Below, piece after piece: positions 29,184 to 56,987 of a stretch of DNA of 64,000 bases (within the stretch, counting starts at the first letter, position 1; every line of letters starts with the position of its first letter). Source of the stretch: an uncultured bacterium. Its GTDB lineage: Bacteria > Bacillota_I > Bacilli_A > RFN20 > CAG-826. A program made the translations under genes and the position numbers. Location of the stretch: positions 82,657-146,656 of the forward strand of contig CASDYZ010000007.1 of NCBI GenBank assembly GCA_949285325.1, written 5' to 3'. Below the pieces are notes generated by a model. The model worked only from the letters and a program-made list of their open reading frames with translations, was not told where the DNA came from and did no database searches.

Positions 29184-29184
29184 A

Positions 29185-40070: not shown

Positions 40071-42146
40071 ATGGAACATAGTCTAAAAAGAACGCCCGGT
40101 AGAACATATTATGAATCTACAATAGAAGAATTTGTGTTAAATAAAAAACCTAGAGAAATAGTGGATTATTTAACAGAAAGTGATGAAGAGATGGATTTAA
40201 ATATTTTAAAATCTCAAAAGCACGCTTGGACTAATCAGATATCAATATTGCAAAAATATTTAAAAGATAAATCCGGTTATATTATTTTTGAATATGTTTT
40301 ATCCAGATTAAATATGAGGATAGATGTTGTACTTTTAATGGGTGATGTTGTCTATTCTTTAGAATTTAAAAATTTTGAAACAACATTTAAACCTGATGCG
40401 ATAGACCAAGCAGAAGGTTATGGATACGCACTTAAAAACTTTTATGAAGTGAATAGAGATAAATATGTCGTACCTATATTAATCGCGACAAAAGCGCCAG
40501 ACAGTATATGTTCTAATAAATCTGATTTAGGGATAGATAAACTGTTTACTCTTTTTAAAGCTAATATACATAAGATGGAGCAATACATTGAATTAATTAG
40601 ATCAAAATATGGTTCTACTACGATATATACTGAAGAGGATTTTAATAACTGGGTTAACTCACCTTTTAAACCTAATCCTTCAATCATACAAAGCGCTAGA
40701 TCAATATATATGAACAATCAAGTTGATGAGTTTTTTAAATTTGACGCTGGTGAAGAGAATTTAAAAGTAACTGAATCGACAGTGGAAGCTATTGTTAAAG
40801 ATGCGAGAGAAAACAAAAAGAAAATTATTTGTTTTGTTTCAGGTGTGCCAGGTGCAGGTAAAACATTAGTTGGTCTCGATTTAGCGGGTAAAACTAGAGA
40901 TGGTGTCAATGAAAAAACAATATTTTTCAGCGGTAATGGACCTCTTATTAACGTACTTACAGAAGCGCTTGGAAGAGATGCTTTTAAAAATAATCCCTTA
41001 AAATATCCTAATAAAAATCGTGCAGTTACTGATGTTAAAGCGTTTATACAAGACCTGCATGCTTTTAAACAAGATATCATCTCATCAAAAAATAAAACGA
41101 TAGAAGAAAATGTATTGATATTTGATGAAGCACAACGAGTTTGGGATGAAACTCAACTTGAGCAGTGGCTTAAAAAGAAAGGCGCAGATCCTAAATTTTA
41201 TGGTTTGTCAGAAGCCGATTTATTATTAAACACTTTCAACAACCGTTCATGGGGCGTCATCGTCGCCTTAGTAGGGTTAGGTCAAGACATACACAGAGGC
41301 GAAAATGGTTTAGGCGTATGGTTTAATTCACTTTTAAACAAACACAAAGAGTGGGAGATTAGATTGTCTGATGGTATATTTAGCCAAAACGCTGATGATT
41401 TAAGAGATTACATGGATGAATTAAAAAATAATAAAAGAGTAAAAGAGTGCCCAGGCTTATTTTTAAAAACATCGATAAGAACTCCCAGGGCTAAAAATTT
41501 ATCTGAATTTACTGAAGCATTATTGTTTAATAATCCCTCTAAAGCAAGACACGCTCTATCTAAATTTAACGATTATCCTATATGTATAACTAGGAATCTC
41601 GAGTTAGCTTTAAATTTTGTACAGTCTAATTCAGCTAGAAAAGAGAGAATAGGTAAACTCTGTAGCAGTAATAGCAAGATATTAGGTAAAAGAAGTCGTC
41701 AATTTGATAATATTGTCAATTTTAAATTTTCTAACTGGATGCTCGACGAAAATGGAGCGGATTGTTCAAATACACTAATATATGCGGCTACAGAATTTAA
41801 TATCCAAGGACTAGAGATAGATTGGTCACTTTTAGGTTGGGACATGGATATGTATTATTCTAATGGTGAGTGGTGTCAGCAGAAAATGTTGACCGCTAAA
41901 CGATTTAAAGAAAGTTCAGATATTGAGAAAAAACATATTTTAAATTCTTACCGTGTCCTACTTACAAGAGCGAGAAAAGGTATGGTTATATATATACCAA
42001 AAACAGACGAATATGAAGATGTCTATGGCACAAATAAATATTTAGATTCAACATATGATTATTTAAAGTCATGTGGTATTAAAGACATAGAAGAAGAAGC
42101 AACCATGTTTAATAAACAAATAGACGCTGTTAAGTTGCCTTTTTAG
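40071..42146 (+). CDS. DUF2075-family (Schlafen-like) P-loop ATPase/helicase with N-terminal restriction-endonuclease-like region
   Basis: Walker A FVSGVPGAGKTLVGLDL, Walker B LIFDEAQRVWDE and a C-terminal LLTRARKGMVIYIP SF1-like motif. The N-terminal ...IFEYVLSRLNMRIDVVLLMGDVVYSLEFKNFE resembles a PD-(D/E)xK module. Confidence 0.65.
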   Translation: MEHSLKRTPGRTYYESTIEEFVLNKKPREIVDYLTESDEEMDLNILKSQKHAWTNQISILQKYLKDKSGYIIFEYVLSRLNMRIDVVLLMGDVVYSLEFKNFETTFKPDAIDQAEGYGYALKNFYEVNRDKYVVPILIATKAPDSICSNKSDLGIDKLFTLFKANIHKMEQYIELIRSKYGSTTIYTEEDFNNWVNSPFKPNPSIIQSARSIYMNNQVDEFFKFDAGEENLKVTESTVEAIVKDARENKKKIICFVSGVPGAGKTLVGLDLAGKTRDGVNEKTIFFSGNGPLINVLTEALGRDAFKNNPLKYPNKNRAVTDVKAFIQDLHAFKQDIISSKNKTIEENVLIFDEAQRVWDETQLEQWLKKKGADPKFYGLSEADLLLNTFNNRSWGVIVALVGLGQDIHRGENGLGVWFNSLLNKHKEWEIRLSDGIFSQNADDLRDYMDELKNNKRVKECPGLFLKTSIRTPRAKNLSEFTEALLFNNPSKARHALSKFNDYPICITRNLELALNFVQSNSARKERIGKLCSSNSKILGKRSRQFDNIVNFKFSNWMLDENGADCSNTLIYAATEFNIQGLEIDWSLLGWDMDMYYSNGEWCQQKMLTAKRFKESSDIEKKHILNSYRVLLTRARKGMVIYIPKTDEYEDVYGTNKYLDSTYDYLKSCGIKDIEEEATMFNKQIDAVKLPF

Positions 42147-42242: not shown

Positions 42243-45200
42243 ATGGCAACGATTAATGAACAAGTTGAAGAATATAGAGAAACAGAAGTTTTAAAATTGT
42301 ATAAAGAACATAAAGACGAGATTATTCGTGATTTAAATAGAGAAAAAAGTACAAAAGATGACTACAACGGTAGAGTAATTTTAGAATTGTTACAAAACGC
42401 TGTTGACCAAGCAATAGATGGTGAAACAGTAAAAATATTTATTAGTTTAGAAAACAATGAGTTAATTATTAAAAACACAGGCGAACCTTTTGATTTTGAA
42501 GGTGTAAAAAGTGTTATGAAATCCGATCATTCGCCAAAAGCTGAAGATCAAAACACTATCGGATATAAAGGGCTTGGGTTTCGTTCGGTAATAAACTGGT
42601 CTCATGATATTTCTATTTATAGTCACGATTTAAGCATTAGATTTTCTAACAATTTTAGAAAACAATATTTTGAAAAAAATGGAATATTAGACGAAACAGC
42701 GTTACTAGTAGCACCGCAAATAATAGAAAACATCGACCAAGACGGATATGACACAATTATCAAGATTAAAATTGATAACGAAACAAAAATAGAAGAAGTA
42801 AAATCACAACTTAACAATATCAATAAATATACTTTGTTGTTTTTAGACAATGTCGATGAATTATCTATTAAAATAGATAATAGAACTAAAAGATATCAAA
42901 GAAAAGAAAAAGAAGATGAAGTTACAATAATTGATGATGGAAATGAAAACAAATTCAACCTTTTCAAAAAAGAAGAAGAAATAAATGATAAAAAACATAA
43001 AATCGTGATTGCGTATGATCCGGCAATCGATTGTACAAAAAATAAACTTTATTCATATTTTGAAACGAACATTTCTCTTCCTATTAAATGGAAATGTCAT
43101 GTAACATTTGATTTAGAATCAAACAGAAAACATATTGTAGAAAGTGAAGACAATATAAATCTTTTTAAAACATTGATTTCTTTTATTTTAGAAAAAGCAC
43201 AAGAGTTGGCAGAAAAACAAAATCCTAGAACGTATGAATTTTTTGATAGTGTGTTACCAATAATTAAGGCAGAGCATTTATCTTTTGGAATAAATGACGC
43301 ATCACTAATAAGTTTTTTTAAAGATGAAATTGAAAACGCCAAGATTCTTCCAACATTACCAAACGGTTTAGTTTGTTTAAATGATCGACCAATATTTTAT
43401 GAGAATATTCCTGATTTTTTTAAAGATATAGAAAATGAAAAAATTTTATGTGAATCAAATGATAAAGATAGAAACGAAATTTTGAGCAAAATGCTACAAT
43501 ACAACGATTTTAATCCTATGGGCTTAAAAGAACAAATTAATAAAGTGAGTCATGAATATGACGCAAAAACAAATGTTGGCATTTATTTATGGTGGGAGGG
43601 CAAATATAGAAATAATAATAATTGTTTACCAAACGTTTTAAAAAATTCACATGGAGAGTTTATAGAAAAAGACACTAATGTTTATTTTGTGCATAGTAAT
43701 GAAGATTTTGATATTCCAACTTGGGCAAAAATTATCCAACTTGATAAAGAATATGAGCAAGAATTAAAAGAACAAACACAGAAGTTTTTCCCGCATATAT
43801 TTAAAAAAAATAAGGATTCAGTTGAAAGAATAATTGGGGCAAATTCTGGTAAATATCAAATATTATCTCATATCAATTTTCATGATTCTGATATTTCTAA
43901 CATAATTTCTCCTATAAATTCATCGGTAAAGAATGATTTTAAAAAAGCAAAAGAATTTGTTAAGTGGCTATGGAAACATTATTCAAATAGAGATGGGTGG
44001 GTACCACCAGATGAAATAAGATTTAATTTTCCATCAAATAACGAAACAGTTTGTAAAGCCAACGAATTATTTTTAGGACAAAATTATGACAATCCATTAG
44101 GTGATAAATTGTTTCAAGACAATAAATTTGAACCTTTGTTAGACTTTAAAAGACTTAATATAGAACAAGAACAAAAAGAAGATTTTATAAAATTTATTTT
44201 AAAATTTTCGGTAAATAAATTCCCAGTATTACAAAAAACAACTATCGAAGATAGTGATTTTAGAAAGCAATATTCAGAAGAGTGGATAAAAAATAAAATA
44301 TTAGAAATATATGAAAAAGACGAACCAAGATACATTGAATTAAAAAAAGTAGAAACCAACAATATCGAAAAATTAGAAACAATATTAGACAATCTTGAGG
44401 ATTATGAAATTTTTCAGTGGTTGTGTTTTGATGATAAAATCAAGCAAGAAATAGAATTGAAAAACAAAAATCAAATTACAGTTGATTATGATATAAGATC
44501 TTATACCCATAGAAACAATCAAATAATAGAAGATGATGAAAGAAGTTATATCAAATATATAATATCTAAAACTAAATGGATAAATATTGGTGGAGTAAAA
44601 CATGCACCTGTTGAGTGCGTATTTATTAATAAATATGATGTTAAACTAAATGAGTTGCTACATGTTATTGACGAAGAATATATTAAGAATATTTGTAACA
44701 AAGCAAATATTACAAAAGATACATTAAATAAGACAATTAAACATATCGGTATAGCGGAACGTATAAGCAATTTAAAATCCAATGATTTGTATGACTTCTT
44801 ATTAAAATTACCAAATTATGATAAACGGGGGATTATTTCCAAAAAACTATATAACGAATTTTGTGAGCCAGATAATACTATTGATATTACATATTCAGAA
44901 AATAAACAAAGATTTTTTCAAGAAGGACAAGTTTACACTTATAACAGAGATGGTGAAAGTTTTCATCTTGCGTCTGACACATATTTTACTAATAGCATGA
45001 TGATAAATTTAAAGAACAAATATATTATTTTCACTCCAAATAGAAAAGGAAGCTTTGAAACATTTAAAAATGTATTTGGTGTTCAAAAATTTGAAGAAAA
45101 TGTTTCCGTAGTTGAAGGAAGTGAAACAATAAGTCAGCACAATAAAAGTTTCCAAGAAGATTTTAAAGATTTTGTTAAATATGCGAGACATTGGAAAATA

Positions 45201-46685
45201 AAAAATGAAAAACTAGGAGAAGAAATAGATAAGATAACAGTTAAACTTATCACACAAATTAGTTTAGAGGAAAACGGAAAGACCATGATATTCAAAGATA
45301 AATATATCCCAATTTTTAATGGTAAAACATGGTACATAGTAGTGGACGATAGCGATGATGTGAATGATCTTAATATAAGAGAATGCATTGAAAATATTTG
45401 TGGAAAAATTGGAAACACGGAGAATGAGACAATTTTGCGTGAGTTAGGTGAAGTTTATGAAAACAAAAATAATAGATTACAACGTACCGAGAAGTATTTA
45501 GGAGAACCAATATCGATAGAAGACACTGTAATTGAAAACGAGATACGTAAGTCATTTGCAAAAATATTAAATTTAAAATACGAAGATGACGATTTGAAAG
45601 GTATTGATTTTGACAATATTGAATCTTTAGAAGTAGCAGAGTCAATATTTAAACTTTTGAAAAGGCATAATAAAAGCATAAAAGAATTGCGACGAGATAA
45701 TTTTAAGTACATCGATAAAATTAAATTTGAAAACTATTTTCAAAACATGATAAAAAATTTCATCGACACCAATGAAGACAAATACAAGAATTCATTATTT
45801 GTGTCTTATAAAGATAAAGATAGAAAAGACCAAGAACAATTTTTAGATAAGGTTGATGAATTTAAACATTTTTCTCCTGACTTTGACGCAACAAAATTTG
45901 ACATAGATTTTGACGCACAAAAATTAGTTACAAAACATTTTTCAATCATAGGCGATGAGATAGACGCTGAAGCGGACGAAGAATACGAAAACAATTTCAA
46001 AGAATATTTTAGTGATTTATATAATAATGATGAATTTAAAGACTTTCTCATTAGAAACAAAAATTATAAATCTTTAATTTATTTTATTAATGACACCAGT
46101 GGAGATATCGTAGATGAAATTAAAAATAAATATAACGGTCAAAAACAATTAAGTTTAGAGGATATCTACCCTTCAATCAGCGGAGAACAAAATCGCGCTA
46201 TAGATGATTTTATAGTGACAAAGAGTAAGTTTGAACCTAACATCACATCAACAAACAAAGGCGCAAATTCAAAAGAACATGTGAAAACATCTAATGAAAT
46301 TGAAAGAGAAAATCGTAAGAAAAGGAAAAGTGGAAAACAAGCAGAAGAAATAGTATACAATTCTTTAAAGGACCGTATACCTTCTTTAAAATGGACTTCA
46401 GAAAGTTCGTCTTGTGCAAGTCAAAGAGGAAATTCACAAAAATACGATATGGAATATATCAAAGATGGAGAGAAACACTATATAGAAGTCAAGGCGGGCG
46501 TCACATCTTTTTATATGTCTAGAAGTGAATATGATTTTTCACAAGAGAATAAAGATGTCTATGAAATATATTTAGTTGATTCAGACGCTACAAAAATAGA
46601 TGGCCCACACACGATAGGTGAATTTGAAGGCGCGAAAGAAGTTAATGAATATATCTTTAATTTTAAAAAAGTTACTGACAATTAA
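42243..46685 (+). CDS. Giant sacsin/HSP90-like GHKL ATPase with C-terminal DUF3883 (restriction-endonuclease-like) domain
   Basis: Bergerat-fold N-box ILELLQNAVDQA and G2 box IGYKGLGFRSVINWS at the N-terminus. A C-terminal DUF3883-like block (GKQAEEIVYNSLKDRIPSLKWTSE...KYDMEYIKDGEKHYIEVKAG...YEIYLV) closes the 1480 aa protein. Confidence 0.65.
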   Translation: MATINEQVEEYRETEVLKLYKEHKDEIIRDLNREKSTKDDYNGRVILELLQNAVDQAIDGETVKIFISLENNELIIKNTGEPFDFEGVKSVMKSDHSPKAEDQNTIGYKGLGFRSVINWSHDISIYSHDLSIRFSNNFRKQYFEKNGILDETALLVAPQIIENIDQDGYDTIIKIKIDNETKIEEVKSQLNNINKYTLLFLDNVDELSIKIDNRTKRYQRKEKEDEVTIIDDGNENKFNLFKKEEEINDKKHKIVIAYDPAIDCTKNKLYSYFETNISLPIKWKCHVTFDLESNRKHIVESEDNINLFKTLISFILEKAQELAEKQNPRTYEFFDSVLPIIKAEHLSFGINDASLISFFKDEIENAKILPTLPNGLVCLNDRPIFYENIPDFFKDIENEKILCESNDKDRNEILSKMLQYNDFNPMGLKEQINKVSHEYDAKTNVGIYLWWEGKYRNNNNCLPNVLKNSHGEFIEKDTNVYFVHSNEDFDIPTWAKIIQLDKEYEQELKEQTQKFFPHIFKKNKDSVERIIGANSGKYQILSHINFHDSDISNIISPINSSVKNDFKKAKEFVKWLWKHYSNRDGWVPPDEIRFNFPSNNETVCKANELFLGQNYDNPLGDKLFQDNKFEPLLDFKRLNIEQEQKEDFIKFILKFSVNKFPVLQKTTIEDSDFRKQYSEEWIKNKILEIYEKDEPRYIELKKVETNNIEKLETILDNLEDYEIFQWLCFDDKIKQEIELKNKNQITVDYDIRSYTHRNNQIIEDDERSYIKYIISKTKWINIGGVKHAPVECVFINKYDVKLNELLHVIDEEYIKNICNKANITKDTLNKTIKHIGIAERISNLKSNDLYDFLLKLPNYDKRGIISKKLYNEFCEPDNTIDITYSENKQRFFQEGQVYTYNRDGESFHLASDTYFTNSMMINLKNKYIIFTPNRKGSFETFKNVFGVQKFEENVSVVEGSETISQHNKSFQEDFKDFVKYARHWKIKNEKLGEEIDKITVKLITQISLEENGKTMIFKDKYIPIFNGKTWYIVVDDSDDVNDLNIRECIENICGKIGNTENETILRELGEVYENKNNRLQRTEKYLGEPISIEDTVIENEIRKSFAKILNLKYEDDDLKGIDFDNIESLEVAESIFKLLKRHNKSIKELRRDNFKYIDKIKFENYFQNMIKNFIDTNEDKYKNSLFVSYKDKDRKDQEQFLDKVDEFKHFSPDFDATKFDIDFDAQKLVTKHFSIIGDEIDAEADEEYENNFKEYFSDLYNNDEFKDFLIRNKNYKSLIYFINDTSGDIVDEIKNKYNGQKQLSLEDIYPSISGEQNRAIDDFIVTKSKFEPNITSTNKGANSKEHVKTSNEIERENRKKRKSGKQAEEIVYNSLKDRIPSLKWTSESSSCASQRGNSQKYDMEYIKDGEKHYIEVKAGVTSFYMSRSEYDFSQENKDVYEIYLVDSDATKIDGPHTIGEFEGAKEVNEYIFNFKKVTDN

Positions 46686-46831
46686 TTATTAATTCAACAT
46701 CATTTTTATAAAAATCAAAGCAAAACGAGCATATTTAATATATATTTACATTAATATTTGATTAATTTAATTAGTTTTGCTATGTGTGTAAACAATGGAC
46801 TTTAAAATAAAAATATTTGATAATTGTATTT

Positions 46832-49800
46832 ATGAAACATTTCTTGCTTTTGATAGATATAGACCATCTTGCTGTTTCTAATAATTTTAATAAAAGCATG
46901 TTTGATTTTGTTTTTAATCGTGGCGGTTTTCATCTTGCAAATTCTCTTACCGCCAGCAAGAATAAAAAGCTTTTTGGTGAATATAAAAATATAGATGATA
47001 ATTTTAATGAATTTGAACCAGTGATAGAGAGTTGTTATTTTGATTTATGGCAAGGTAGATTTAAGAATCTAATCATATCTTTTTATGATGTGACAAATAG
47101 TCTTAATTATGGTCTAGTTAAATATAACATTAAAACTAAGATGTTTGAGTTATATTATGTGAATAAAGATAGAGATAAGTTTATTGAGAACAATGATGTT
47201 GATGATATTTTAGATAAAGATTTAAGTGATAAGATTATCGATTATGTCTCGTCTTTAGATGTAGAGACACTAGGTGAATTGTCTAGCAATGTTTATGTGT
47301 CAAAAGAAAATAAACTATTGATTATTGATCAATCTAAAATAAGTGAAAACACTAAAACGATACTTAATGTAATGTTATCTAATAAATTAAATACGACAAA
47401 CATCATCAATATTAAAAATGTCGCGGTGGATATTGAAGATTTAAATAATCCACTATACGTATATGTTGAATTTGAATGCAAAGATAAAAAATATGAGTAT
47501 TGGTTTTATGATGAGGAATTAAAAGATATCGATGTATTAGATTATGGTGAAATTAAAGATACTTGGCTAGATATATTTATCAACAAAGCAGAAGAAGAAT
47601 TTATAAGACAAAATAAAAAGATTCTTATAGATGTTTTAAATAAGAAAAACAAAGATGATGCGTTTAATGTGTTATCTAAATTATATAAAAAATTTAAACT
47701 TGTTAAATGTGACGATGGATATGGATATATAGAACTAAATAGCGACCCCTTTATATATTTAGACGACGATAATGTCAAAATCAAAACTAGTAGAAATATC
47801 GATGACGATAGTTATGTTGTGTTTGATTATATAAACATCATAGACAATAAAAATGAAATTAAGAAAGTAATCGATAGATATATATCAAGTAAGCCAAAAG
47901 AATACGATACATTTATAAAGGAAGTAGATGAATTTATAAATAACATATACGACCTAGATACATCAAAACAAATTGCGTTAAAGTTATTAGAAAAAGCTAA
48001 TAATTTATCGCCGTACGATAAAACGACAACGATATATGAAAAAGCATATCAACAACTTAAAAATAAGTATAATCAATTGATCAATGTCAATAAAACTAAA
48101 GTCAGCAATTGTTTAACGTTGTTAAATAAAATAGTGGATATCAATACGTATAACACCTATTGTGATGCATTTAACGATGCAGTGGAAGAGTGTAGTGAAG
48201 GTGAATTAAGCGCTTTTAAAAATGAATACGATGATTTTTTAAATAAGTATGGATATATATCAAATTATCCATCGACACACACTGTATATAGAAGAGTGTT
48301 TATAAGAAAAAGTGTGCTAGAAGATTTAAAAAAACTAGATATTGAAAATAAGGGATTAAAAATATTGTCGGTGATGGATGATATCGTCGATAATTTAAAG
48401 ACACTGCCAGGTAATGAACTTGGTAAATATTTATTAAATAAAGGTTTAAATTTTCCAATTAAAAATGATAGGTCGATTAAAAAGATAAGGATACTTAGAA
48501 ACGCAAAATATAGATTGTTATTTGTCTATGGTTCTGATTTAAATGATGTAGAAAGAAATACTAATTCCAACAGCGTTTATATCTTTGCCCTAACTATGCA
48601 TAAAAAGGACAGCGGTGAACTATATACACTAGCAAAAACAAAACCAAACAAATATAAAATTAATGATTTTATTATCTATCCAAAAAACAAATTGATTAAA
48701 ATACCAGAATGTACATCTAAACAGTATGAGATTGCCTCTAGTTATAAAAATAGACCACTCGTCACTTTTGGGTGTGCGGGAAGTGGGAAAACGACTGTGT
48801 CCATCGAACAATATGTCAATATTGTATATAACAACTTCAACTGCGCTTCACCTAAGGTAGATGAACTTGTCTATATAACATTTCATAAAGGTTTATCAGA
48901 CAAAGTTAAAAAAGATTTACTAGAATTTCACATCGATGGTAATTGTTATAAATTAGATGAATATTTTGCTTATGTAGTGGGGGAAGAATATAACAAAGCA
49001 CAAATCATCGATGAACATGTCTTTGTCAGTTGGTTTAATAAAACATATTCAAAAAGTGAGATTAAAAAGAATAAGTCAAAAAAGAAAAATAAAATAAGCC
49101 CACTTTTAAATAAGCCAGATATTGCAAGATTAATTTATACATATTACCGTGGAGTATTTAAAGGTAGCAAAGAACTTTATAATTCAAAAGACAATTATCT
49201 AGATAAAGATACATTTATGTTGGAGATGAGTGGTGAGACTTATCTAAGTGATGAAGAGAAAAACGCCATATATTTGTTTTGTTTAGAATTTAATGACTAC
49301 GCTTTTAAAAACAATTTATTAAGCGACAATGACTACGCACTTAAAGTTATAAGACAATCGTCATTTGATATTAAAAAAACAAACTGCATCATCATCGATG
49401 AGGTGCAAGATTTAACTGAGATTGAAACAATCGCGACCATTTTAACTCTTAACGATGACAGTGCGAGGATATATTTTTATGGCGATCCTCATCAAAGTAT
49501 TAATCCAAATGTATTTGATAGTTCGACTATCAATAGGGTTTATACCGCTTTAGGTAAATCGACATCGAGTGAAAACGCTCCTCTTACTATCACTTATAGG
49601 ACTAATAAGCATCTAATTAAATATTTAAATCAACTTCTTAAATACCGTGATAAGTGGATAGGGGCCACTAAAGAAGAACTATCGCAGATAGAAGAGCCGC
49701 CTATAATGGATGAAGATACTTCTTGGGCGGGGTACGTCACTAATAAAGAGTTATATAACAAAATATTTATCACTAATCCTAGGAGTATGATTATTACCCC

Positions 49801-50605
49801 AAGTGAAGAGATAAGAGAAAAATTATTAGATAAATATAAACAGATAGATAAAGAACGTGTCATCACTATATACGACGCGAAAGGGATGGAGTGGGACACG
49901 ATTATCATGTACAACATCTTCAGCGATTATAAGACATATTTTTTAGACATGATTTTAGAAAACGGGTGTGCGAAGAAAAGTACAATTCATAGGATGACGT
50001 TTAATAAATATTATGTTGGTTGTACAAGGAGTACGAAAAGCTTTGTCATCGTCGAAGAAGATGAAGACATATTTAAAAAAGATAATCCGATTTTTAAAAC
50101 GTTATTATCTTCTTTTGCCCCTATTTCAAAAAAAGAACAAATCGATACTTATATATTAGAAGATAATACTTTTGATGCGTGGTATAAAGAGGCAGTGCAA
50201 AACTTAAGTAACGACAATACATCGACATTTGAACACGCTTTAAAACATGCGAGAAGTCTAGCTAAAACAAATGAAGAAATTAGGATGGTCAATAGTCTAA
50301 TCGACGGCACACCTGAACATCTTGAAAGAAGCGCATTTAAATATCTTGAAGAAGGTGAATATGATTTATCACTAAGTACATTTATCAAATGTAATAAAAT
50401 AAATAAACGATATGGCCCATATATCATATTATGCGCGCTTCTATGTGGTAGAAATATAACTGATGAACATTTAAAAGAAATATTAAAACATCAAGAATTA
50501 TTTGATAAATATCCTTCTGCCCTACCTAAACTTATGACACAGAAAGTATTTATAAATAAATTGACGACATTATCTAATAGATTATTTAACAAGGAGGAAA
50601 AATGA
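46832..50605 (+). CDS. UvrD/Rep-like superfamily 1 helicase with long N-terminal extension containing a RelE/ParE-like segment
   Basis: Walker A VTFGCAGSGKTTVS, Walker B IIDEVQDLT, motif IV-like TYRTNKHLI and motif VI-like YYVGCTRSTKSFVIV. Upstream of the P-loop, KIRILRNAKYRLLFVYGSD...VYIFALTMHKKD resembles the RelE/ParE toxin fold. Alternative start at 46817. Confidence 0.7.
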   Translation: MKHFLLLIDIDHLAVSNNFNKSMFDFVFNRGGFHLANSLTASKNKKLFGEYKNIDDNFNEFEPVIESCYFDLWQGRFKNLIISFYDVTNSLNYGLVKYNIKTKMFELYYVNKDRDKFIENNDVDDILDKDLSDKIIDYVSSLDVETLGELSSNVYVSKENKLLIIDQSKISENTKTILNVMLSNKLNTTNIINIKNVAVDIEDLNNPLYVYVEFECKDKKYEYWFYDEELKDIDVLDYGEIKDTWLDIFINKAEEEFIRQNKKILIDVLNKKNKDDAFNVLSKLYKKFKLVKCDDGYGYIELNSDPFIYLDDDNVKIKTSRNIDDDSYVVFDYINIIDNKNEIKKVIDRYISSKPKEYDTFIKEVDEFINNIYDLDTSKQIALKLLEKANNLSPYDKTTTIYEKAYQQLKNKYNQLINVNKTKVSNCLTLLNKIVDINTYNTYCDAFNDAVEECSEGELSAFKNEYDDFLNKYGYISNYPSTHTVYRRVFIRKSVLEDLKKLDIENKGLKILSVMDDIVDNLKTLPGNELGKYLLNKGLNFPIKNDRSIKKIRILRNAKYRLLFVYGSDLNDVERNTNSNSVYIFALTMHKKDSGELYTLAKTKPNKYKINDFIIYPKNKLIKIPECTSKQYEIASSYKNRPLVTFGCAGSGKTTVSIEQYVNIVYNNFNCASPKVDELVYITFHKGLSDKVKKDLLEFHIDGNCYKLDEYFAYVVGEEYNKAQIIDEHVFVSWFNKTYSKSEIKKNKSKKKNKISPLLNKPDIARLIYTYYRGVFKGSKELYNSKDNYLDKDTFMLEMSGETYLSDEEKNAIYLFCLEFNDYAFKNNLLSDNDYALKVIRQSSFDIKKTNCIIIDEVQDLTEIETIATILTLNDDSARIYFYGDPHQSINPNVFDSSTINRVYTALGKSTSSENAPLTITYRTNKHLIKYLNQLLKYRDKWIGATKEELSQIEEPPIMDEDTSWAGYVTNKELYNKIFITNPRSMIITPSEEIREKLLDKYKQIDKERVITIYDAKGMEWDTIIMYNIFSDYKTYFLDMILENGCAKKSTIHRMTFNKYYVGCTRSTKSFVIVEEDEDIFKKDNPIFKTLLSSFAPISKKEQIDTYILEDNTFDAWYKEAVQNLSNDNTSTFEHALKHARSLAKTNEEIRMVNSLIDGTPEHLERSAFKYLEEGEYDLSLSTFIKCNKINKRYGPYIILCALLCGRNITDEHLKEILKHQELFDKYPSALPKLMTQKVFINKLTTLSNRLFNKEEK

Positions 50606-51150
50606 TGGAAGAAGAAAATAAACTTACTGTAGAGGAAATGAGATCGCTTATATCTATATCTACTCTCTTACCAGCTTTGCTTGATAAAATTATGTCTATC
50701 CATAAAGATATTGAAGAACTTAAAAAAGAATTTAAAGACATGAAAGACAAATTTAACAACAACACATCCGCGGTTTTGTCATACAAAGATGAAGTTGATG
50801 ACATGATTAAGAAAAACAATATTAAAAGTGAATTAGATGACATCAAACAAAATATTTTAAAGATTGAAAATAGTGTTTTAAATATGACTAAAAGTTCAAC
50901 CAAAAATAAAAGCGATGATAAAACAAAAATAGTCAGTGAAGAAAAAGAAGAAGATGATGATGAAATCAAATCGATGGCGGACAAAATCTTAATGGATCAC
51001 AAAGGCCGTAAATCGAGGCTTTTAACAGTCATCGATATTAAAAAAGCATTTAAGGTAGACGATAAAAAAGCAAGAGAAGTCATACAATATTTTATTGATA
51101 AAAAGATGTATGATGAACAGATGCGCATATTAAAATTCCCTAAAAAATAG
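50602..51150 (+). CDS. Small acidic coiled-coil protein, translationally coupled to the upstream helicase
   Basis: 182 aa, Glu/Asp/Lys-rich with heptad-like periodicity. ATGATGG overlaps the helicase stop. A possible winged-helix-like C-terminus is inference only. Confidence 0.45.
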   Translation: MMEEENKLTVEEMRSLISISTLLPALLDKIMSIHKDIEELKKEFKDMKDKFNNNTSAVLSYKDEVDDMIKKNNIKSELDDIKQNILKIENSVLNMTKSSTKNKSDDKTKIVSEEKEEDDDEIKSMADKILMDHKGRKSRLLTVIDIKKAFKVDDKKAREVIQYFIDKKMYDEQMRILKFPKK

Positions 51151-51171
51151 TAGAAGTGGCACAATATAAAT

Positions 51172-52083
51172 ATGCGTTATTTATTTTTTGACATTGAATG
51201 TGCTGATGGGATGTTTGCCATATGTGAATTTGGTTATGTCATATGCGACGAGAATTTTAAAATAACTCATAAGAGAAATATATTAATTAATCCCAGGAGT
51301 AAATTTAGATTAACAAATAGAAAGAAGTCTAAAGATTTAGCTCTTACTTACCCTATAGAAGAATATATTAAACATAATGAATTTAATGAATTTTATGACA
51401 ACATCAAATTTTTATTGACGCAGAAGAACATAAAGATATTTGGATACGCGGTTAATAACGATATTAGTTTTTTGTTTAGAGACACTCTTCGATACAATTT
51501 AAAATTGTTTGATTTTAGTTGTTACGATGTACAAAAGATGCTTAATATATTTTCAAGCAACAACAACGCATCAACATCTTTAGAAAAAGCATATACAAAT
51601 TTAGTAAAAGATAAAGTAGACATTAAACATCACCACGCGCTTTGCGACGCATATAAGAGTATGCTTATCTTTAAAGCAATGGTGGAGGCACTAGACACGA
51701 GTGTCGAGCAGTTTATCTCGCTTTGCTCGTCTTCATTTATAAACGCTTTATCGAGTTGGAATAAAACGCAAAAGAATGAACAAAATAAAAGGCAGAAGAG
51801 AAAATGGGATAAATTTGTATCAAGTTATAAAAATAAAATCGATAACGATAAAACAATTTATGTCAGTGATTTAATTTATTTAAATGATAAGCAGTTTGAA
51901 GTTATAACAAAATATATTAAAGATAATAATTTAATACCAACTAAATCGATAAGTGCTTGTTACCTCGTGTTCTTAGATGAAAAAGAGAAGAACAAGAGAC
52001 TTATAAAGATAAAAGAATTTATAAAAGGTGAAATATTAATCTATCAAGATATATTAAATAAAATGAAAAGTAACAATAAGTAA
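51172..52083 (+). CDS. DEDDh-family 3'-5' exonuclease (DnaQ-like)
   Basis: Exo I motif FFDIEC, Exo II GYAVNNDISFL and Exo III HHALCDAYKS (the H-x4-D of DEDDh). It starts 21 nt after the upstream gene. Confidence 0.7.
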   Translation: MRYLFFDIECADGMFAICEFGYVICDENFKITHKRNILINPRSKFRLTNRKKSKDLALTYPIEEYIKHNEFNEFYDNIKFLLTQKNIKIFGYAVNNDISFLFRDTLRYNLKLFDFSCYDVQKMLNIFSSNNNASTSLEKAYTNLVKDKVDIKHHHALCDAYKSMLIFKAMVEALDTSVEQFISLCSSSFINALSSWNKTQKNEQNKRQKRKWDKFVSSYKNKIDNDKTIYVSDLIYLNDKQFEVITKYIKDNNLIPTKSISACYLVFLDEKEKNKRLIKIKEFIKGEILIYQDILNKMKSNNK

Positions 52084-52134: not shown

Positions 52135-52839
52135 ATGGAATTTAAAGACAAACTTAAAAAATTAAGAACAGAAAATGGTTTGACACAAGAAGCGTTAGCA
52201 GAAGCGATACACGTCTCTAGAAGTGCGATAGCAAAATATGAAAATGGTAATGGTTATCCATCTAAAGAGACGCTAGAGTCTCTTGCTTATTATTTTGGTG
52301 TTGATATAAGTGAATTAGAAAGCGACGAGATAATTGTCAAAAGAAAGAAAAAGAAAAACATCATTAAAATCATATTAATTGTATTCTCAAGTATCATTGG
52401 GGCAATCGGTCTAGGTTTAGCGGGATTCGCCATTTATTTTGAACTCAACAAACTACCAACTGGCGGGATGGTAGAATTTAATGCCTCAAAAATAGGTTTA
52501 AATGCCTGTAAAGAAATGAGAGAAATTACTTTACATGGACATACATTTACTTACTACAACGTTAAATCTAACGAAAAAGGTGAATGGATCTTGGTGGATG
52601 AGACATCGCATATAATTAACACTGACATCATCTTTGGCTTTAGACTAAAAAGTGGTGATAAAGTATCAATCAATGGATATTATAACGACGAAGCAGAAAT
52701 TTATAATAATGTATCTAAAGCGTATCCTGGATACACTGATTATTCGATAAGAGATTATGGATTTATCATTGAAGTAAAAGATGACACTGAGGTGCCACCT
52801 GAAGGGATAAATTTAGGAATAATGATGCATTGGTGTTAA
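52135..52839 (+). CDS. Membrane-anchored XRE-family HTH transcriptional regulator
   Basis: N-terminal Cro/C1 HTH (LRTENGLTQEALAEAIHVSRSAIAKYENG), a single TM helix (IIKIILIVFSSIIGAIGLGLAGFAIYF) and a roughly 130-aa C-terminal extracytoplasmic domain. Confidence 0.7.
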   Translation: MEFKDKLKKLRTENGLTQEALAEAIHVSRSAIAKYENGNGYPSKETLESLAYYFGVDISELESDEIIVKRKKKKNIIKIILIVFSSIIGAIGLGLAGFAIYFELNKLPTGGMVEFNASKIGLNACKEMREITLHGHTFTYYNVKSNEKGEWILVDETSHIINTDIIFGFRLKSGDKVSINGYYNDEAEIYNNVSKAYPGYTDYSIRDYGFIIEVKDDTEVPPEGINLGIMMHWC

Positions 52840-52872: not shown

Positions 52873-53703
52873 TTACAATATTATTTTAACGATAGTAATG
52901 TCGTCGATAACTTTAAAACGATTATATTTATTAAAATCTATATCAGAGTATGCTTTTTCTTTTATTTCGTTAAATAATATATCTAAATCATCTTTGCTAT
53001 TTATTTTTGATATTGTTTCATCCATAGATTTATAAATGTTAAAAGTGGACCATATATCTTCAAACCCATCAGTTAATAAACTTATGGATGATATATCTTT
53101 TTTCTCTATAGATTCGTGAGAAAAATTAAACACCCCATCACGTGAACAAGTATATATCGCATACCCTTCTTTTTTATTTGCTTTAAGCCGATGTTTGATC
53201 AATATATCGTTATTATTTTGTCTAGCTTTTTTAAAACTGACATTATTTTTTAAGGCGTATTCTTTCATGACATTTAACGATATATCGTCTAATTTAACTA
53301 GTTCTTGTTGTTGATAATTTTTAAATTGGTGCTCTTTATTTTCTATTACGATTTGACTATCACCAATATAATCTAAATTTATTCTATTATCATCAATATT
53401 GACGACGACCATCCCGACACTAGGTAAGATAGACATATCAGCGTTATTTAAAAAATATTGTTCATAATATTTGATACTTATTTTTTTAAGTGCATCTTTT
53501 AAATGTATATATTTTTTAGGTAGATGTCTTTTTATGTAATTGACGAAATGGGCGCCGGTGGAGGGGAGAAGAGAAGAAGGGACAAGTCCAGTCGCCCCAT
53601 CCATAACTAAAACATAATCATCACCGATGAAGAAACGATCTTCATTGTAATAATGTGATTTACGTGTTTTATAAATTAATGTTAAGTCTTTTTTAATATT
53701 CAT
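52873..53703 (-). CDS. PP2C-family serine/threonine protein phosphatase
   Basis: PP2C metal-binding motifs YNEDRF (motif 1), VMDGATG (motif 2), IGDSQIVI (motif 8) and LLTDGFED (motif 11). Its ATG abuts the TAA of the upstream gene (TAAATG). Confidence 0.6.
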   Translation of the reverse strand: MNIKKDLTLIYKTRKSHYYNEDRFFIGDDYVLVMDGATGLVPSSLLPSTGAHFVNYIKRHLPKKYIHLKDALKKISIKYYEQYFLNNADMSILPSVGMVVVNIDDNRINLDYIGDSQIVIENKEHQFKNYQQQELVKLDDISLNVMKEYALKNNVSFKKARQNNNDILIKHRLKANKKEGYAIYTCSRDGVFNFSHESIEKKDISSISLLTDGFEDIWSTFNIYKSMDETISKINSKDDLDILFNEIKEKAYSDIDFNKYNRFKVIDDITIVKIIL

Positions 53704-54939
53704 TTAGATAATACCTGCAGTGATTAAAGAGGCGGTTAGGATAAGAGCCCCTATACATAGGATAATTATAGAATATATTTTTTGTTTTTTCTTTAAATCG
53801 TCTAACACTAGGCTAACACCAACTAAACATATACCCAATAAAATTAGTATCAAACCGAGGTAGGCACATATATATAGTACGATTCTAATTGGTTCATCGA
53901 CTCTAGCGAATATTTCAATGCTACCTAATAAGAAACCTAACAACGCTGTCATGATAGATATGACTTTAAAATTGTCAGTCTTAATAGATTTAAGTGTCTC
54001 ATAATTGCTATTTGATGTATCAAACGCTTGTATTAATGATATGTTATTTGCGATTAATTTATATGAGTCGATTGTTGATTTATTAGGAGAAGATGATTCA
54101 TATACTTTTTGTATCCCTTTATTTATGCTTTCTAGTGCGAGTGCGTATTCGTGTGAGAGGGCGAGTAGTCTTCCTCTAGTGACATAGTATTTGTCATATA
54201 CTTTTAAATTGTATTTAACTGCCTCATTTATTTTGTCATTGAATATTTTTTGCTCTTCATCATATTCTTTATCTTTTAACAATTTAATATTGTCTATCGA
54301 GTTATTTTTCTCCGCCTCTTTAATCAAATCGTTAATTTTATTTAAAGCGTCTTTAATTTGCTTTTGTCCGACATTATCTTCTTTCTCATCTTTTAAATCG
54401 AGATGTCTTTCATAATATATGGCAATCATCTCACAGTAGTGATGGATGATGCCAGGTTGAGTTGAAAGAGATGGGTGTTCTTTTCTCATCCTTTCTGACT
54501 GTTTTATCAATCTATCGTATTTATCGTAAAATTTAGGTGAATTAGCTTTATTTAATAAATCGATATGTTTTTTAATTGGATAGTTGTTAAATTCAAAACC
54601 AAATTGTTCAACTTCTTGTAGATAAAATGTTTCCATCTCAGAAAAATTGTTTTGTCTTCGATAATAAGTAAAGACAATCCAAAAATAAGTAAAGATAATA
54701 TCTAATTGTTCACCTTGTCTTTGTTTAGGATTCTTAATATAAGCATCCTTTTCACTTTGATAAATATTTTTTATTTGATTTATAAGGTTATTAGATGCAA
54801 TTAATTTACTTAATTCTGTCACTTGACATTCATACTGACGGCTACTAAAAAAATCTTTATCGTCATCATTATTAGTCGTCTCTTTTTTAAGTTCACATAT
54901 ACTTTTAATGTACTGTTTAATATTAACTAAATACTTCAT
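53704..54939 (-). CDS. Hypothetical alpha-helical protein with two C-terminal transmembrane helices, co-operonic with the PP2C phosphatase
   Basis: 411 aa with a soluble helical N-domain and two long hydrophobic helices near the C-terminus. Its stop is directly fused to the PP2C start. Confidence 0.45.
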   Translation of the reverse strand: MKYLVNIKQYIKSICELKKETTNNDDDKDFFSSRQYECQVTELSKLIASNNLINQIKNIYQSEKDAYIKNPKQRQGEQLDIIFTYFWIVFTYYRRQNNFSEMETFYLQEVEQFGFEFNNYPIKKHIDLLNKANSPKFYDKYDRLIKQSERMRKEHPSLSTQPGIIHHYCEMIAIYYERHLDLKDEKEDNVGQKQIKDALNKINDLIKEAEKNNSIDNIKLLKDKEYDEEQKIFNDKINEAVKYNLKVYDKYYVTRGRLLALSHEYALALESINKGIQKVYESSSPNKSTIDSYKLIANNISLIQAFDTSNSNYETLKSIKTDNFKVISIMTALLGFLLGSIEIFARVDEPIRIVLYICAYLGLILILLGICLVGVSLVLDDLKKKQKIYSIIILCIGALILTASLITAGII

Positions 54940-54959
54940 ATTTTTTATCCTTTCTTAAA

Positions 54960-56987
54960 TCAAAAACTAATTCTAATCGAAGGGCGAACACCAGTGTCGG
55001 ATAAAGTAGGAGAAGTAGCCCTAAACATCCCGTTATCGATAATAGCCATTACGGATGAGGAGTTATAGTTATATGGTGTCCTTGTCCAATAATCTGACCT
55101 TTCGTTATCTAATACATAACCGCCAATGGCTTTAAAATAGTCACTCACAATTCCTGCCCTTGCTTCGTCGATGGTGTTTTCTTTTTTAAATTCAAAACTT
55201 GTCAAATCTTTATAGCTGAGCGGATAGACATAGTCATCTGTATCCTCACAAATATAAGGGTGATCTTCATCCATCGTTGAAGCACTAGAATTATCGACAG
55301 TAGTTAATAATATTCTATCTCTTTCTTCCTCACTAAAAGCTTTATTTAAAAACTCATCATTTAAAAATGTTCTTAAAGTTGAAGAAGCGTAATTATTACT
55401 CAAGGTGGCACTAAACTCATGGGCATCTAAAATGTATTTACTAAAAAGTAGAAACCCTTCATTATCTTCATCTAATATATCCCACTCGATTGGCTTGACA
55501 TTAAAATAATACGTTTCACCAGCACTGACTATTGTCCCATCGCTAAACACATAATCCACACCAGCGGGATTTGCTTCTACTTTTACATATTCATTATTGT
55601 TATATGAATAGTAACCATTTTCGTTTGGTGTAACATTATTTAAAACAACTTTCAACTGTTCATTTACGCTGTGGCCAACATAACTTTGAGGATATTTACC
55701 AAATGTCAATTCTTCTTGTTTCTCGTATGGGAATAAAGTCGTCCCGATATTACTAACTTTAGTATCTATAACCGCCGGATGATAACTACCGCCTTCATCT
55801 TTTTTAATTGCCTCGTAATGGATACTTATATCTTGGATGACATTATTTTCATCGACATTTAAAGTGACATACGCTTGTGATATATCAAGAATTTGATAAT
55901 TAAATCCAATGAACGGTAAGGCGGGATCAAAATATCTTAAATAGTACATGTATCCATTTGCAAAATCAAAGCCACCGAGGATGTCATATACATTATTTCC
56001 TAGTGGTCTAAATAGATATGGTGTCATACTGACTTTAGTTAAATAGTCTTTGACAGTCGCACTTATCGCATTTTCACCTTTTCTAATATAAAGATTATTT
56101 TCCACATCGATATCGACTGGATATAATCCGTATTCATATTGGGCAAATACTTTGGTGTTATCTCCCTTTTTAATAAGTAGTCCATCGTTAGACGCTTCGA
56201 CGTGTGTCTTATCTTTGACGTCATTGACACTTATATCGATGTTGAGAGTGTAATTACCCCCGTTTAAAATAGTTAACATCTGATTAATTTTATTTAAATC
56301 ATCTTGAGGATAAGTATTAGGATTTAAACAACTTGCGATACCTGGCATGTTAATGTCACTTATATTGACACTTACAAAAGTCGCGTCGACATTATAAGAG
56401 GCATCGTTTTGGTCTATCGTCCCAATAAATTTAAATTGTTTGACACTTCTATCGTCATTTAATGTAACTTCTATTTTATTAGTGCTACCAAAATCCATAT
56501 GTATCAATGTATAGATTAATTGGTTTTTATCTTCTAAGGTATAAGTGAATTTGTCGTGTGAATCAATTTCAACATCATCAGCATTTATGTTATTAAAAGG
56601 TGAGACTACATATTCGTCAAAAGGGATATAGTTAACTGTGTCTTGACTTAGGTAGGCGACATCATCAATACGACCTTCATTATTTAATAGATACGACATC
56701 GATTCACCATTTAATCCTTCAAATATATTCTCATACTGCATCGATATATCATTGACTTCTATTTTAGTGTAGTATCTTCTTACTCCCACCTCATAACTAG
56801 CGTACGTCGTCGTTTTAATTGTCTTATTTTTGTAGTAGCCGCCATCGATTTTAATCGTGCCTTTTATAGATATTTCACTTTGTAGTTGTTTAAGTGCGTT
56901 ATCGAGAGTGTCTCTATCCATTTCGCTAGGTGAACAACTAACAATAGATAAACATAAGAACGGAATAATTAAATTTTTAAATTTCAT
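54960..56987 (-). CDS. Hypothetical surface lipoprotein with DUF6273-like C-terminal domain
   Basis: Signal peptide plus lipobox (LSIVSCSP). The C-terminal motif SDYWTRTP...GVRPSIRI resembles the YWWLRSP/VRPA pattern of a Firmicute surface-protein domain. It lies 20 nt upstream of the next minus-strand gene. Confidence 0.5.
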   Translation of the reverse strand: MKFKNLIIPFLCLSIVSCSPSEMDRDTLDNALKQLQSEISIKGTIKIDGGYYKNKTIKTTTYASYEVGVRRYYTKIEVNDISMQYENIFEGLNGESMSYLLNNEGRIDDVAYLSQDTVNYIPFDEYVVSPFNNINADDVEIDSHDKFTYTLEDKNQLIYTLIHMDFGSTNKIEVTLNDDRSVKQFKFIGTIDQNDASYNVDATFVSVNISDINMPGIASCLNPNTYPQDDLNKINQMLTILNGGNYTLNIDISVNDVKDKTHVEASNDGLLIKKGDNTKVFAQYEYGLYPVDIDVENNLYIRKGENAISATVKDYLTKVSMTPYLFRPLGNNVYDILGGFDFANGYMYYLRYFDPALPFIGFNYQILDISQAYVTLNVDENNVIQDISIHYEAIKKDEGGSYHPAVIDTKVSNIGTTLFPYEKQEELTFGKYPQSYVGHSVNEQLKVVLNNVTPNENGYYSYNNNEYVKVEANPAGVDYVFSDGTIVSAGETYYFNVKPIEWDILDEDNEGFLLFSKYILDAHEFSATLSNNYASSTLRTFLNDEFLNKAFSEEERDRILLTTVDNSSASTMDEDHPYICEDTDDYVYPLSYKDLTSFEFKKENTIDEARAGIVSDYFKAIGGYVLDNERSDYWTRTPYNYNSSSVMAIIDNGMFRATSPTLSDTGVRPSIRISF

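Follow-up and report, generated by a model that had tools for sequence, protein, structure and literature searches.

A rare candidate two-gene anti-phage module: a UvrD-type helicase with a RelE-fold domain and its small coiled-coil partner

Three co-directional genes in a defence island

Three genes follow one another on the forward strand of the stretch of DNA analysed here (64,000 nucleotides from an uncultured bacterium, hereafter the window). The first (46832..50605), supported both as an open reading frame and by the public gene call, encodes a multidomain helicase of the SF1/UvrD type; the second (50602..51150) encodes a partner protein of 182 aa that combines a coiled coil with a winged helix; and the third (51172..52083), adjoining the partner gene, encodes a DEDDh 3'-5' exonuclease. 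The original prediction read the three as a single and possibly undescribed system. Its outline of the locus is confirmed by the open reading frames, which all lie on the forward strand, with an ATGA overlap between the first two genes and a gap of 21 nt between the stop of the partner gene and the start of the exonuclease. All the motifs that it quoted are likewise present in the translations: GCAGSGKTT, IIDEVQDLT, YYVGCTRSTKS and KIRILRNAKYRLLFVYGSD...VYIFALTMHKKD in the helicase, and FFDIE, NND and HHALCDA in the exonuclease. The helicase gene itself stands, but not its predicted length of 1262 aa. Of two candidate starts, TTG at 46817 and ATG at 46832, the ATG is most likely the one in use and the TTG unlikely, because the ATG is the start in public records and the alignment with a 58%-identical homologue begins at Met1 of that protein; the helicase is then 1257 aa long.

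The junction between helicase and partner (50591..50605, forward strand) carries the sequence features of translational coupling: an AAGGAGG Shine-Dalgarno sequence at 50591-50597 lies ahead of the partner gene, and the helicase stop (TGA, 50603-50605) shares bases with the partner start (ATG, 50602-50604). When 46.0-53.2 kb was scanned for promoters and terminators, no terminator-like site turned up between the three genes, and promoter-like matches did not exceed their frequency in shuffled sequence. Given the short gap and the lack of a terminator within it, the exonuclease is probably co-transcribed with the other two genes here.

The setting in a defence island, also predicted, is borne out by the known or candidate defence genes that flank the pair, for which PADLOC reports Tiamat (2.6e-226), PDC-S41 (2.2e-181) and a Mokosh-like gene, MkoC-like (6.7e-56); NERD, PDC-S41 and TmtA genes lie upstream of the helicase. 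In a 98%-identical strain the cassette immediately upstream is another one, the breakpoint falling where tmtA ends, and the arrangement of helicase, partner and exonuclease is kept.

A RelE-fold domain ahead of a UvrD-type motor

The motor of the helicase is a UvrD-type SF1 core at aa ~626-1090 (48707..50101, forward strand), in which Walker A spans G647-T654, motif II is D856-E857-x-Q859-D860 and motif VI includes T1065-R1066. The match to the Pfam UvrD-helicase N-terminal domain (PF00580) is modest (E 8e-8, 32.7 bits vs a cutoff of 23), AAA_19 is also matched, and the GCAGSGKT, DEVQD and TRS motifs are invariant in a 24-sequence alignment of relatives. With Walker A, motif II, the motif VI arginine and a Pfam match above the gathering threshold all in place, the assignment to UvrD/Rep-type SF1 helicases made in the original prediction is upheld. 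The N-terminal extension (aa 1 to ~470; 46832..48241, forward strand) has no Pfam match and no catalytic motif that we could see; it is restricted to the closest relatives, with very few invariant residues in an alignment of seven, and the N-termini of other family members are different or absent. The C-terminal tail (aa ~1091-1257; 50102..50602, forward strand) is conserved in close relatives, among them fragments from the loci L086, L088 and L089, with W1117 invariant; one relative has a weak TPR match, and the tail may be helical or TPR-like.

A word-indexed search of 5.8 billion proteins returned only two matches to the helicase, namely the protein itself and one weak match, on which it would pass for an orphan. 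This was wrong: an exhaustive HMMER search and the contexts of partner homologues revealed relatives: of 1.84 billion cluster representatives 426 match at E <= 1e-3, and there are full-length homologues at 58%, 57%, 46% and ~32% identity. The family is rare and patchy, and it is essentially absent from viral contigs, where the one distant match lies in a giant-virus bin.

Between extension and motor lies a domain of the RelE/HigB/ParE fold (BECR; aa 480-615; 48269..48676, forward strand). The original prediction had seen a RelE/ParE-like segment before the P-loop, and as a fold this holds, the domain having passed the fold test with a match to RelE3 (3bpq_D); at the level of sequence profiles it fails, since none of 30 domain sequences matches a RelE/ParE Pfam family and a profile search with the domain found no toxin among PDB sequences. 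Nor do sequence models of RelE, ParE, HigB or YoeB claim it as a family member. Across the helicase family R561 and H590 never vary and K551 hardly does. Strands 2 and 3 and the stretch that follows strand 4 carry these residues, a placement that would suit a RelE/YoeB-type active site, and it is from these three conserved residues only that we infer that the domain could be catalytically competent. Any ribosome-dependent RNase activity of the domain would be putative, and unlike the HigB, RelE and YoeB toxins this fold is fused inside a motor protein of 1257 aa. Cami1 (CARF-RelE) illustrates that a RelE fold can act as effector within a larger protein of defence. Helicases go unmentioned in a 2025 survey of multidomain RelE/ParE proteins (PMC11980606).

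The combination of RelE fold and UvrD motor has nevertheless been described before, in ArmD of ARMADA type II (PMC12458937; bioRxiv 10.1101/2025.09.15.676423), so the architecture is not new; what is undescribed, and what remains of the suggestion of an undescribed system, is the operon context with a small partner. In ArmD of E. coli (WP_000218177.1) a RelE-like fold likewise lies N-terminal to a GajB-like UvrD-family motor, and hhalign shows the two motors to be homologous in their cores (probability 98.9%, E 2e-17), at a core identity of only 17%. A similar ...YR...HD motif closes the RelE domain in either protein, and each domain matches RelE3 3bpq_D (for ArmD, PMC12458937 Table S2); sequence homology between these domains was considered and is not significant. 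The likeness to type II ArmD is one of architecture only, and there are clear differences. ArmD has 704 aa, without the 470-aa N-terminal extension, and in E. coli no small coiled-coil partner lies downstream of it. Its own partners, ArmA (a Snf2-like helicase), ArmB (a PglX-like methylase) and ArmC (a YprA-like helicase), are none of them adjacent to the window pair, the type II order of ArmA/BrxHII-like, ArmB and ArmC genes before ArmD is not seen, and neither a methyltransferase nor a YprA-like gene was found in the loci with the pair. ArmD, which also occurs in defence islands, is needed for phage defence, and a Walker A mutant abolishes protection (PMC12458937). ARMADA acts non-abortively, so that a toxin-like role is not established even in ArmD (PMC12458937).

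Other systems share less with the pair. Gabija, too, is a defence module of two genes with a UvrD-type SF1 helicase, GajB, but the match of GajB to the window helicase is weak (E 7e-8, PADLOC) and confined to about 100 core residues, GajB has neither a RelE-fold domain nor a coiled-coil partner, and no GajA (the OLD-family ATPase-TOPRIM protein) was found by PADLOC among 12 neighbouring proteins scanned. Membership of Gabija, Hachiman, Mokosh or Nhi was ruled out, the partner genes of these systems being absent. PADLOC 2.0 finds no model that fits the module and gives only weak, partial GajB-type matches to the helicase and its relatives, in keeping with the prediction that no named system would match. 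CnuH of type II/III-A CoCoNuTs (PMC11090510), which we liken to the helicase by its description, is an SF1 helicase whose motor is immediately preceded by a RelE/colicin D-like 'RTL' domain that only structure reveals, and its system includes coiled-coil proteins; CnuH, however, is UPF1-like rather than UvrD-like, and the McrBC-type GTPase and nuclease components of its system are absent here (PMC11090510).

The conserved pair and its exonuclease neighbour

The partner had been predicted to be an acidic coiled-coil protein. It is a Glu/Lys-rich coiled coil, but it is not acidic, having no net charge (D+E = K+R = 39; pI 6.8), and it has a C-terminal winged helix besides. A long coiled coil (aa 10-99) is followed by a disordered linker and then by the winged helix (aa 116-178), which in an AF2 model built from an alignment of six sequences (pLDDT 79) has the topology H-b-H-H-b-b; when the model was compared with the PDB by Foldseek, all of the top 50 matches were winged-helix domains, with weak E-values of 0.06-0.4. 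An N-terminal helix motif at aa 8-30 (L-T-x-E-E-M-x-x-L...LLPALLDKI) is conserved. Most members carry the winged helix, but some partners (that of L092 and the distant ORFs of 127-134 aa) lack it, so DNA binding cannot be the partner's core role.

These features bear on whether the pair might be a toxin-antitoxin-type addiction or stress module, in which a giant HigB-like toxin and an antitoxin-like regulator would stabilise the island with no direct part against phage. The toxin-first order and the translational coupling recall higBA, and a DNA-binding winged helix is found in many antitoxins. Yet an ATP-dependent motor of 1257 aa would be needless in a simple addiction module, the lack of the DNA-binding domain in some partners speaks against an antitoxin, and so does a long coiled coil, which is atypical of antitoxins and sets the partner apart from XRE antitoxins of the HigA type. 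ArmD, moreover, the only characterised protein of the same architecture, works in phage defence (PMC12458937). We consider a pure addiction module improbable.

Helicase and partner are adjacent in seven other loci (L086, L088, L089, L090, L091, L092 and L132), a count that excludes both the window and L087, its near-identical strain copy, and in all seven the two genes overlap or lie no more than 4 nt apart. Where measurable, the helicases of these loci are 32-71% identical to that of the window. Identities of helicase and partner are 58% and 45% in L086, 57% and 45% in L132, 46% and 30% in L090, and 32% and 20% in L091; in L092 the helicase is 32% identical and the partner shares the N-terminal motif only, and in L088 the helicase figure is 50% over a 62-aa end fragment. 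Homologues of the partner occur nowhere except beside homologues of the helicase. More distant helicases (25-27% identity) again have a small coiled-coil ORF next downstream; these ORFs were considered as homologues of the 182-aa partner and rejected, and with HMM E-values of 0.03-0.1 and poor alignment they are positional analogues only. The independent contexts are few (about 8 close and 4 distant). The pair is adjacent, co-directional, translationally coupled and kept across divergent members, and the gene that follows it varies by locus, being a NERD nuclease, a membrane protein, a zinc-ribbon/coiled-coil protein, a small HTH-like ORF or genes on the opposite strand. Since the pair recurs in seven loci while the next gene changes, the conserved unit consists of two genes.

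The third gene does encode a DEDDh exonuclease, as predicted. The window protein has no Pfam match of its own, so the assignment depends on matches to the PADLOC Cas-associated DEDDh profile (1.7e-6) and NCBIfam KapD (8.3e-5), and on its family, whose members match Pfam RNase_T (PF00929) and DEDDh_C (PF21762). All five catalytic residues of DnaQ/KapD/RNase T-type enzymes are present in the Exo I D-x-E, Exo II D and Exo III H-x4-D arrangement (D7, E9, D97, H154 and D159) and are invariant across 30 homologues; a distinctive extra domain of about 110 aa makes up the C-terminus (aa ~190-303). The family is one of its own and comprises proteins of about 317-330 aa from Bacilli and Clostridia, whose neighbours vary.

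Whether this exonuclease belongs with the pair is the point on which the predicted three-gene system turns, in which helicase and coiled-coil protein would be joined by the exonuclease as nuclease effector, possibly exchangeable for NERD elsewhere. Probable co-transcription and the retention of the arrangement in the 98%-identical strain would fit such a system. In L088, moreover, a nuclease-type protein with NERD and a Zn-ribbon is encoded 19-20 nt downstream of the pair, so two lineages have a nuclease-like gene in the third slot, and elsewhere homologues of the exonuclease often show translational coupling to upstream genes of various kinds, an MkoA-like helicase among them. Against this, the exonuclease is confined to the window lineage among the seven with an informative downstream region (0/6 in the others), relatives of helicase or partner are absent from all of ~78 other exonuclease loci, and many exonuclease homologues sit beside housekeeping genes (nrdD/tmk, alr, asnA or transporter genes). 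Co-conservation of the three genes, whose absence the original prediction had itself named as refuting it, was not found, and a three-component system is improbable; the exonuclease looks like a neighbour and not a member of the conserved module. Annotators should not treat the three genes as a single system, and the exonuclease family has a pattern of its own, in that its members are tightly coupled to many different and unrelated genes upstream, with partners of about 450, about 215 and about 930 aa among them.

The breadth of this family in Firmicutes, often among housekeeping genes, could also be taken to mean that the locus is an ordinary accessory operon for DNA repair or replication, with a UvrD/PcrA/HelD-like helicase, a scaffold, a proofreading-type exonuclease and no function in conflict; a UvrD-type motor and a DnaQ-like exonuclease are, after all, classic components of repair. 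Such an operon would sit poorly with the rarity and patchiness of the helicase family, the variable defence islands, swapped between strains, in which the pair lies, and a toxin fold within the helicase, and core replication genes are already encoded elsewhere in the window. We regard this explanation as very improbable.

A candidate module and how it might work

The reading that we prefer, at a probability of about 60%, is that helicase and partner form a conserved two-gene operon, a candidate module for anti-phage defence (or of a toxin-antitoxin-like kind), of which the exonuclease is not part. The anti-phage role is proposed by guilt by association: most loci with the pair lie in a defence-island context, though in L132 the pair stands between ordinary-looking genes. 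In such a module the helicase motor would load on, or track along, the nucleic acid of an invader, and its engagement would permit RNA binding or cleavage by the RelE-fold domain. The partner, binding the helicase through its N-terminal helix, would act as a regulator, an adaptor or an antitoxin-like brake, and may autoregulate the operon through its winged helix; with the toxin-like gene in first place, the order of the two genes agrees with HigBA. The exonuclease, from a separate and widespread Firmicutes family, would occupy the third operon position in the window lineage by chance. A bolder and rather unlikely version would make the module an unnamed, self-contained defence system, with a UvrD-type motor that senses phage nucleic acid and has direct control of a fused ribosome-dependent RNase of RelE/HigB type, cryptic at the level of sequence, with the partner as an antitoxin-like brake, and with exchangeable nucleases in the third slot, the DEDDh exonuclease in the window and NERD elsewhere.

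Sequence models can overlook RelE-type folds that are embedded in large proteins. Should the pair prove to work in defence or abortive infection, the coupling between a helicase motor and a RelE-fold domain could be studied there in minimal form; the same question arises for ArmD of the four-gene ARMADA and for CnuH of the CoCoNuTs.

Gene layout and defence-island setting

Three open reading frames lie on the forward strand at 46817/46832..50605, 50602..51150 and 51172..52083, encoding a RelE-UvrD helicase, a 182-aa protein and a DEDDh exonuclease at the sites, and with all of the quoted motifs, that the original prediction had given them. The helicase stop overlaps the start of the small gene (ATGA) and 21 nt separate the small-gene stop from the exonuclease start, both as first described; a strong AAGGAGG stands 4 nt 5' of the small-gene start and no terminator-like site was found between the three genes. 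The helicase had been read as 1262 aa from 46817, but it almost certainly begins at ATG 46832 (1257 aa), since public gene calls agree on this start and the alignment with a 58%-identical homologue begins at residue 1 of the latter.

The window forms a 64-kb part of a 235-kb metagenome-assembled scaffold (ENA ERZ16268174 scaffold_9) of ~30% GC. Its first 38 kb hold housekeeping genes (gyrB, gyrA, serS and others), and from ~39.3 kb it becomes the defence island that had been recognised at the outset: a NERD and Top1-type Zn-ribbon protein (39312-40025, +), PDC-S41 (an SLFN-g3/DUF2075 helicase; 40071-42146, +; E 2.2e-181) and, directly 5' of the RelE-UvrD helicase, a full-length homologue of Tiamat TmtA (42243-46685, +; PADLOC PDLC03964, E 2.6e-226) with Pfam NOV_C at its C-terminus. 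The exonuclease is followed by a protein that combines an XRE-type HTH and a predicted membrane segment (52135-52839, +) and by three reverse-strand genes (52873-56987, -) encoding 276, 411 and 675 aa, none with a PADLOC match and the last a DUF6273 protein; the strain relative L087 keeps all four of these genes. Beyond an Endonuclease_1 protein (57540-58919, +), a 1032-aa Mokosh-like SF1 helicase (59069-62167, +; AAA_11/AAA_12, DUF2726; MkoC 6.7e-56, MkoA 1.1e-41) extends the island at least 10 kb past the three genes. The window encodes three proteins of the Endonuclease I family, at 26853-31785 (-) and 57540-58919 (+), two of them large, with Ig-like or lamin-tail domains, which look like surface or secreted nucleases.

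The locus L087 (Logan SRR29999897) is 98% identical to the window from 46681, the end of tmtA (L087:6080), through 60798. Upstream of this breakpoint DEAD/Snf2-like, AAA_15-type and unknown genes replace the NERD, PDC-S41 and Tiamat genes, a clean cassette swap typical of defence hotspots. Two metagenomic loci with distant RelE-UvrD helicases have other 5' neighbours: at L094 (684-4143), two paralogous ~580-aa genes with mad3/mad8-like (MADS) matches lie just before the helicase and a small coiled-coil ORF, and at L095 the genes upstream include a comparable mad3-like one and a PDC-S01 gene.

A conserved pair and its changing neighbour

The three genes had been proposed as one module, and searches from both ends failed to find the exonuclease co-conserved with the other two. 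All small-protein homologues with readable contigs lie directly 3' of a helicase homologue. The helicase is matched at 58% identity across all 1261 aa in L086, by C-terminal fragments in L088 and L089 (50% and 71% identical, respectively) and, in an exhaustive HMMER search, by full-length relatives at 57%, 46% and ~32% identity; in L132, L090, L091 and L092 a small homologous gene follows at a 0-4-nt junction, the L092 partner retaining the N-terminal motif only. The pair is therefore conserved and translationally coupled. The next gene is a DEDDh exonuclease in the window and L087, a NERD and Zn-ribbon protein in L088, a membrane protein in L132, a Zn-ribbon/coiled-coil protein in L091, a small HTH-like ORF in L092 and an opposite-strand gene in L089 and L090. 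Because the pair is kept while this slot varies by lineage, the conserved unit is the helicase and small protein. Four distant metagenome relatives (25-27% identity) also have a small coiled-coil ORF next after the helicase, its homology to the 182-aa protein not being significant.

The third protein is a genuine DEDDh enzyme, as predicted, with an additional C-terminal domain: it matches a PADLOC Cas-associated DEDDh model (1.7e-6) and NCBIfam KapD (8e-5), it has 123 homologues, D7, E9, D97, H154 and D159 are invariant across 30 of these, and homologues match Pfam RNase_T and DEDDh_C. Scanning a single genome for each GTDB species returned 485 stretches encoding relatives, of which 80 were taken with 10-kb flanks; none of the 80 held a helicase or small-protein relative (BLASTP 1e-3). 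In Clostridia the exonuclease occupies lineage-specific, syntenic, housekeeping-type settings (nrdD/tmk/methylase, alanine racemase, asnA, MFS transporter). In Bacilli varied, unrelated genes precede it, often with an overlap or 0-3-nt gap: a ~930-aa family (L003, L007, L008), a ~450-aa partner (L005, L033, L053), a ~215-aa family (L026, L048, L057, L062, L079), an HTH-750 and 245 pair (L014, L008), and an MkoA-like helicase with a 485-aa protein (L009). Several of these families match nothing in Pfam or PADLOC, and the exonuclease is the last gene after them. This pattern suggests a promiscuous accessory gene.

A local functional link making a three-gene system is the minority reading. The exonuclease is probably co-transcribed with the pair in the window lineage, and the slot holds a nuclease-type gene in two lineages, the NERD gene of L088 being 50% identical to that at 39312-40025, so that NERD lies near the pair in both, at differing positions; yet the gene after the pair differs between lineages and the exonuclease loci taken lack both pair members. 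We therefore treat the exonuclease as a neighbour of the pair with a promiscuous neighbourhood pattern of its own.

Architecture of the helicase and its partner

Pfam recognises only the UvrD/AAA_19 motor of the helicase (aa 636-895, modest scores), and PADLOC gives short, weak GajB matches and nothing else. Walker A (G647-T654), DExQD (856-860) and the T-R of motif VI are intact and invariant in a 24-sequence family alignment, by which the UvrD-type motor, correctly assigned from the start, looks functional. The predicted RelE/ParE-like segment lies within a ~130-aa domain (aa 480-615), located in 68 relatives; the RelE fold is present, but sequence models do not recognise it, RelE/ParE Pfam families matching 0 of 30 copies of the domain and no toxin emerging when PDB sequences were searched with a profile. 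Of its residues, R561 and H590 show no variation and K551 almost none; they fall on strands 2 and 3 and immediately past strand 4, a placement that would suit a RelE/YoeB-like site. Residues 1-470 gave no Pfam match or discernible catalytic motif; their conservation is confined to the closest relatives, and hardly any position there is invariant. The family is rare (426 matches at E <= 1e-3; HMMER, 1.84 billion representatives), and ~30 members of 780-870 aa start directly with the RelE-fold domain. Other members (P0145, P0147, P0149, P0156 and others) have long extensions before this domain, up to 965 aa, in which ~100-aa modules appear by eye to repeat between acidic or Pro/Lys-rich linkers, possibly as copies of a sensor domain.

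Among 5.8 billion proteins, five cluster homologues of the small protein were found. It is highly charged, as predicted, but not acidic (39 D+E, 39 K+R; pI 6.8, no net charge). A conserved helix opens the protein and leads to a coiled coil and, in most members, a winged helix: AF2 (six sequences, pLDDT 79) places long helices at 10-71 and 74-99, followed by a disordered linker that ends in an H-b-H-H-b-b unit at the C-terminus. The best 50 Foldseek matches to this unit are without exception DNA-binding domains of the winged-helix type (MarR, GntR, IclR, MntR, Z-alpha, eS25), with probabilities up to 0.95 and weak E-values of 0.06-0.4. The best-conserved stretch is the N-terminal helix (L-T-x-E-E-M-x-x-L...LLPALLDKI).

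Known relatives and a proposed function

The suggestion of an undescribed system holds in part: no PADLOC 2.0 model covers the helicase family, which shows generic GajB-type similarity only, but the RelE-like and UvrD architecture has been described for ArmD of ARMADA type II (PMC12458937). Gabija was rejected because no GajA adjoins the helicase. ARMADA defence needs all four of its genes, is abolished by ArmD K266A and is reported to be non-abortive (PMC12458937). The E. coli ArmD sequence (WP_000218177.1), recovered via a published mutagenesis primer, has a motor homologous to that of the window family (hhalign probability 98.9%, E 2e-17, 17% identity), whereas similarity between the RelE-like domains is not significant. 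Unlike the window helicase, ArmD lacks a 470-aa N-terminal extension, the 780-870-aa members having an ArmD-like minimal layout, and has no small ORF downstream; ArmA, ArmB and ArmC are absent from all pair loci. CoCoNuT CnuH helicases likewise have a RelE-like domain, detected by structure only, ahead of an SF1 motor (PMC11090510). Multidomain RelE/ParE proteins were surveyed in 2025 with Pfam families as the starting point, and helicases go wholly unmentioned there (PMC11980606), which fits the domain's invisibility to Pfam models.

We put the probability that the pair is a two-gene conflict module of the following kind at about 60%, and hold any single step far less firmly. The motor would engage invader nucleic acid and control the RelE-fold domain, which would bind or cleave RNA; the small protein, docking on the helicase by way of its N-terminal helix, would regulate it or restrain it in the manner of an antitoxin, and its winged helix may serve in autoregulation; lineage-specific sensing would fall to the N-terminal extension of the helicase. 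On present evidence the pair is best described as a stand-alone operon of two genes, one for an ArmD/GajB-like RelE-UvrD helicase and the other for a novel small partner; it is this partner and operon that are new here, the RelE-UvrD architecture being already known from ArmD.
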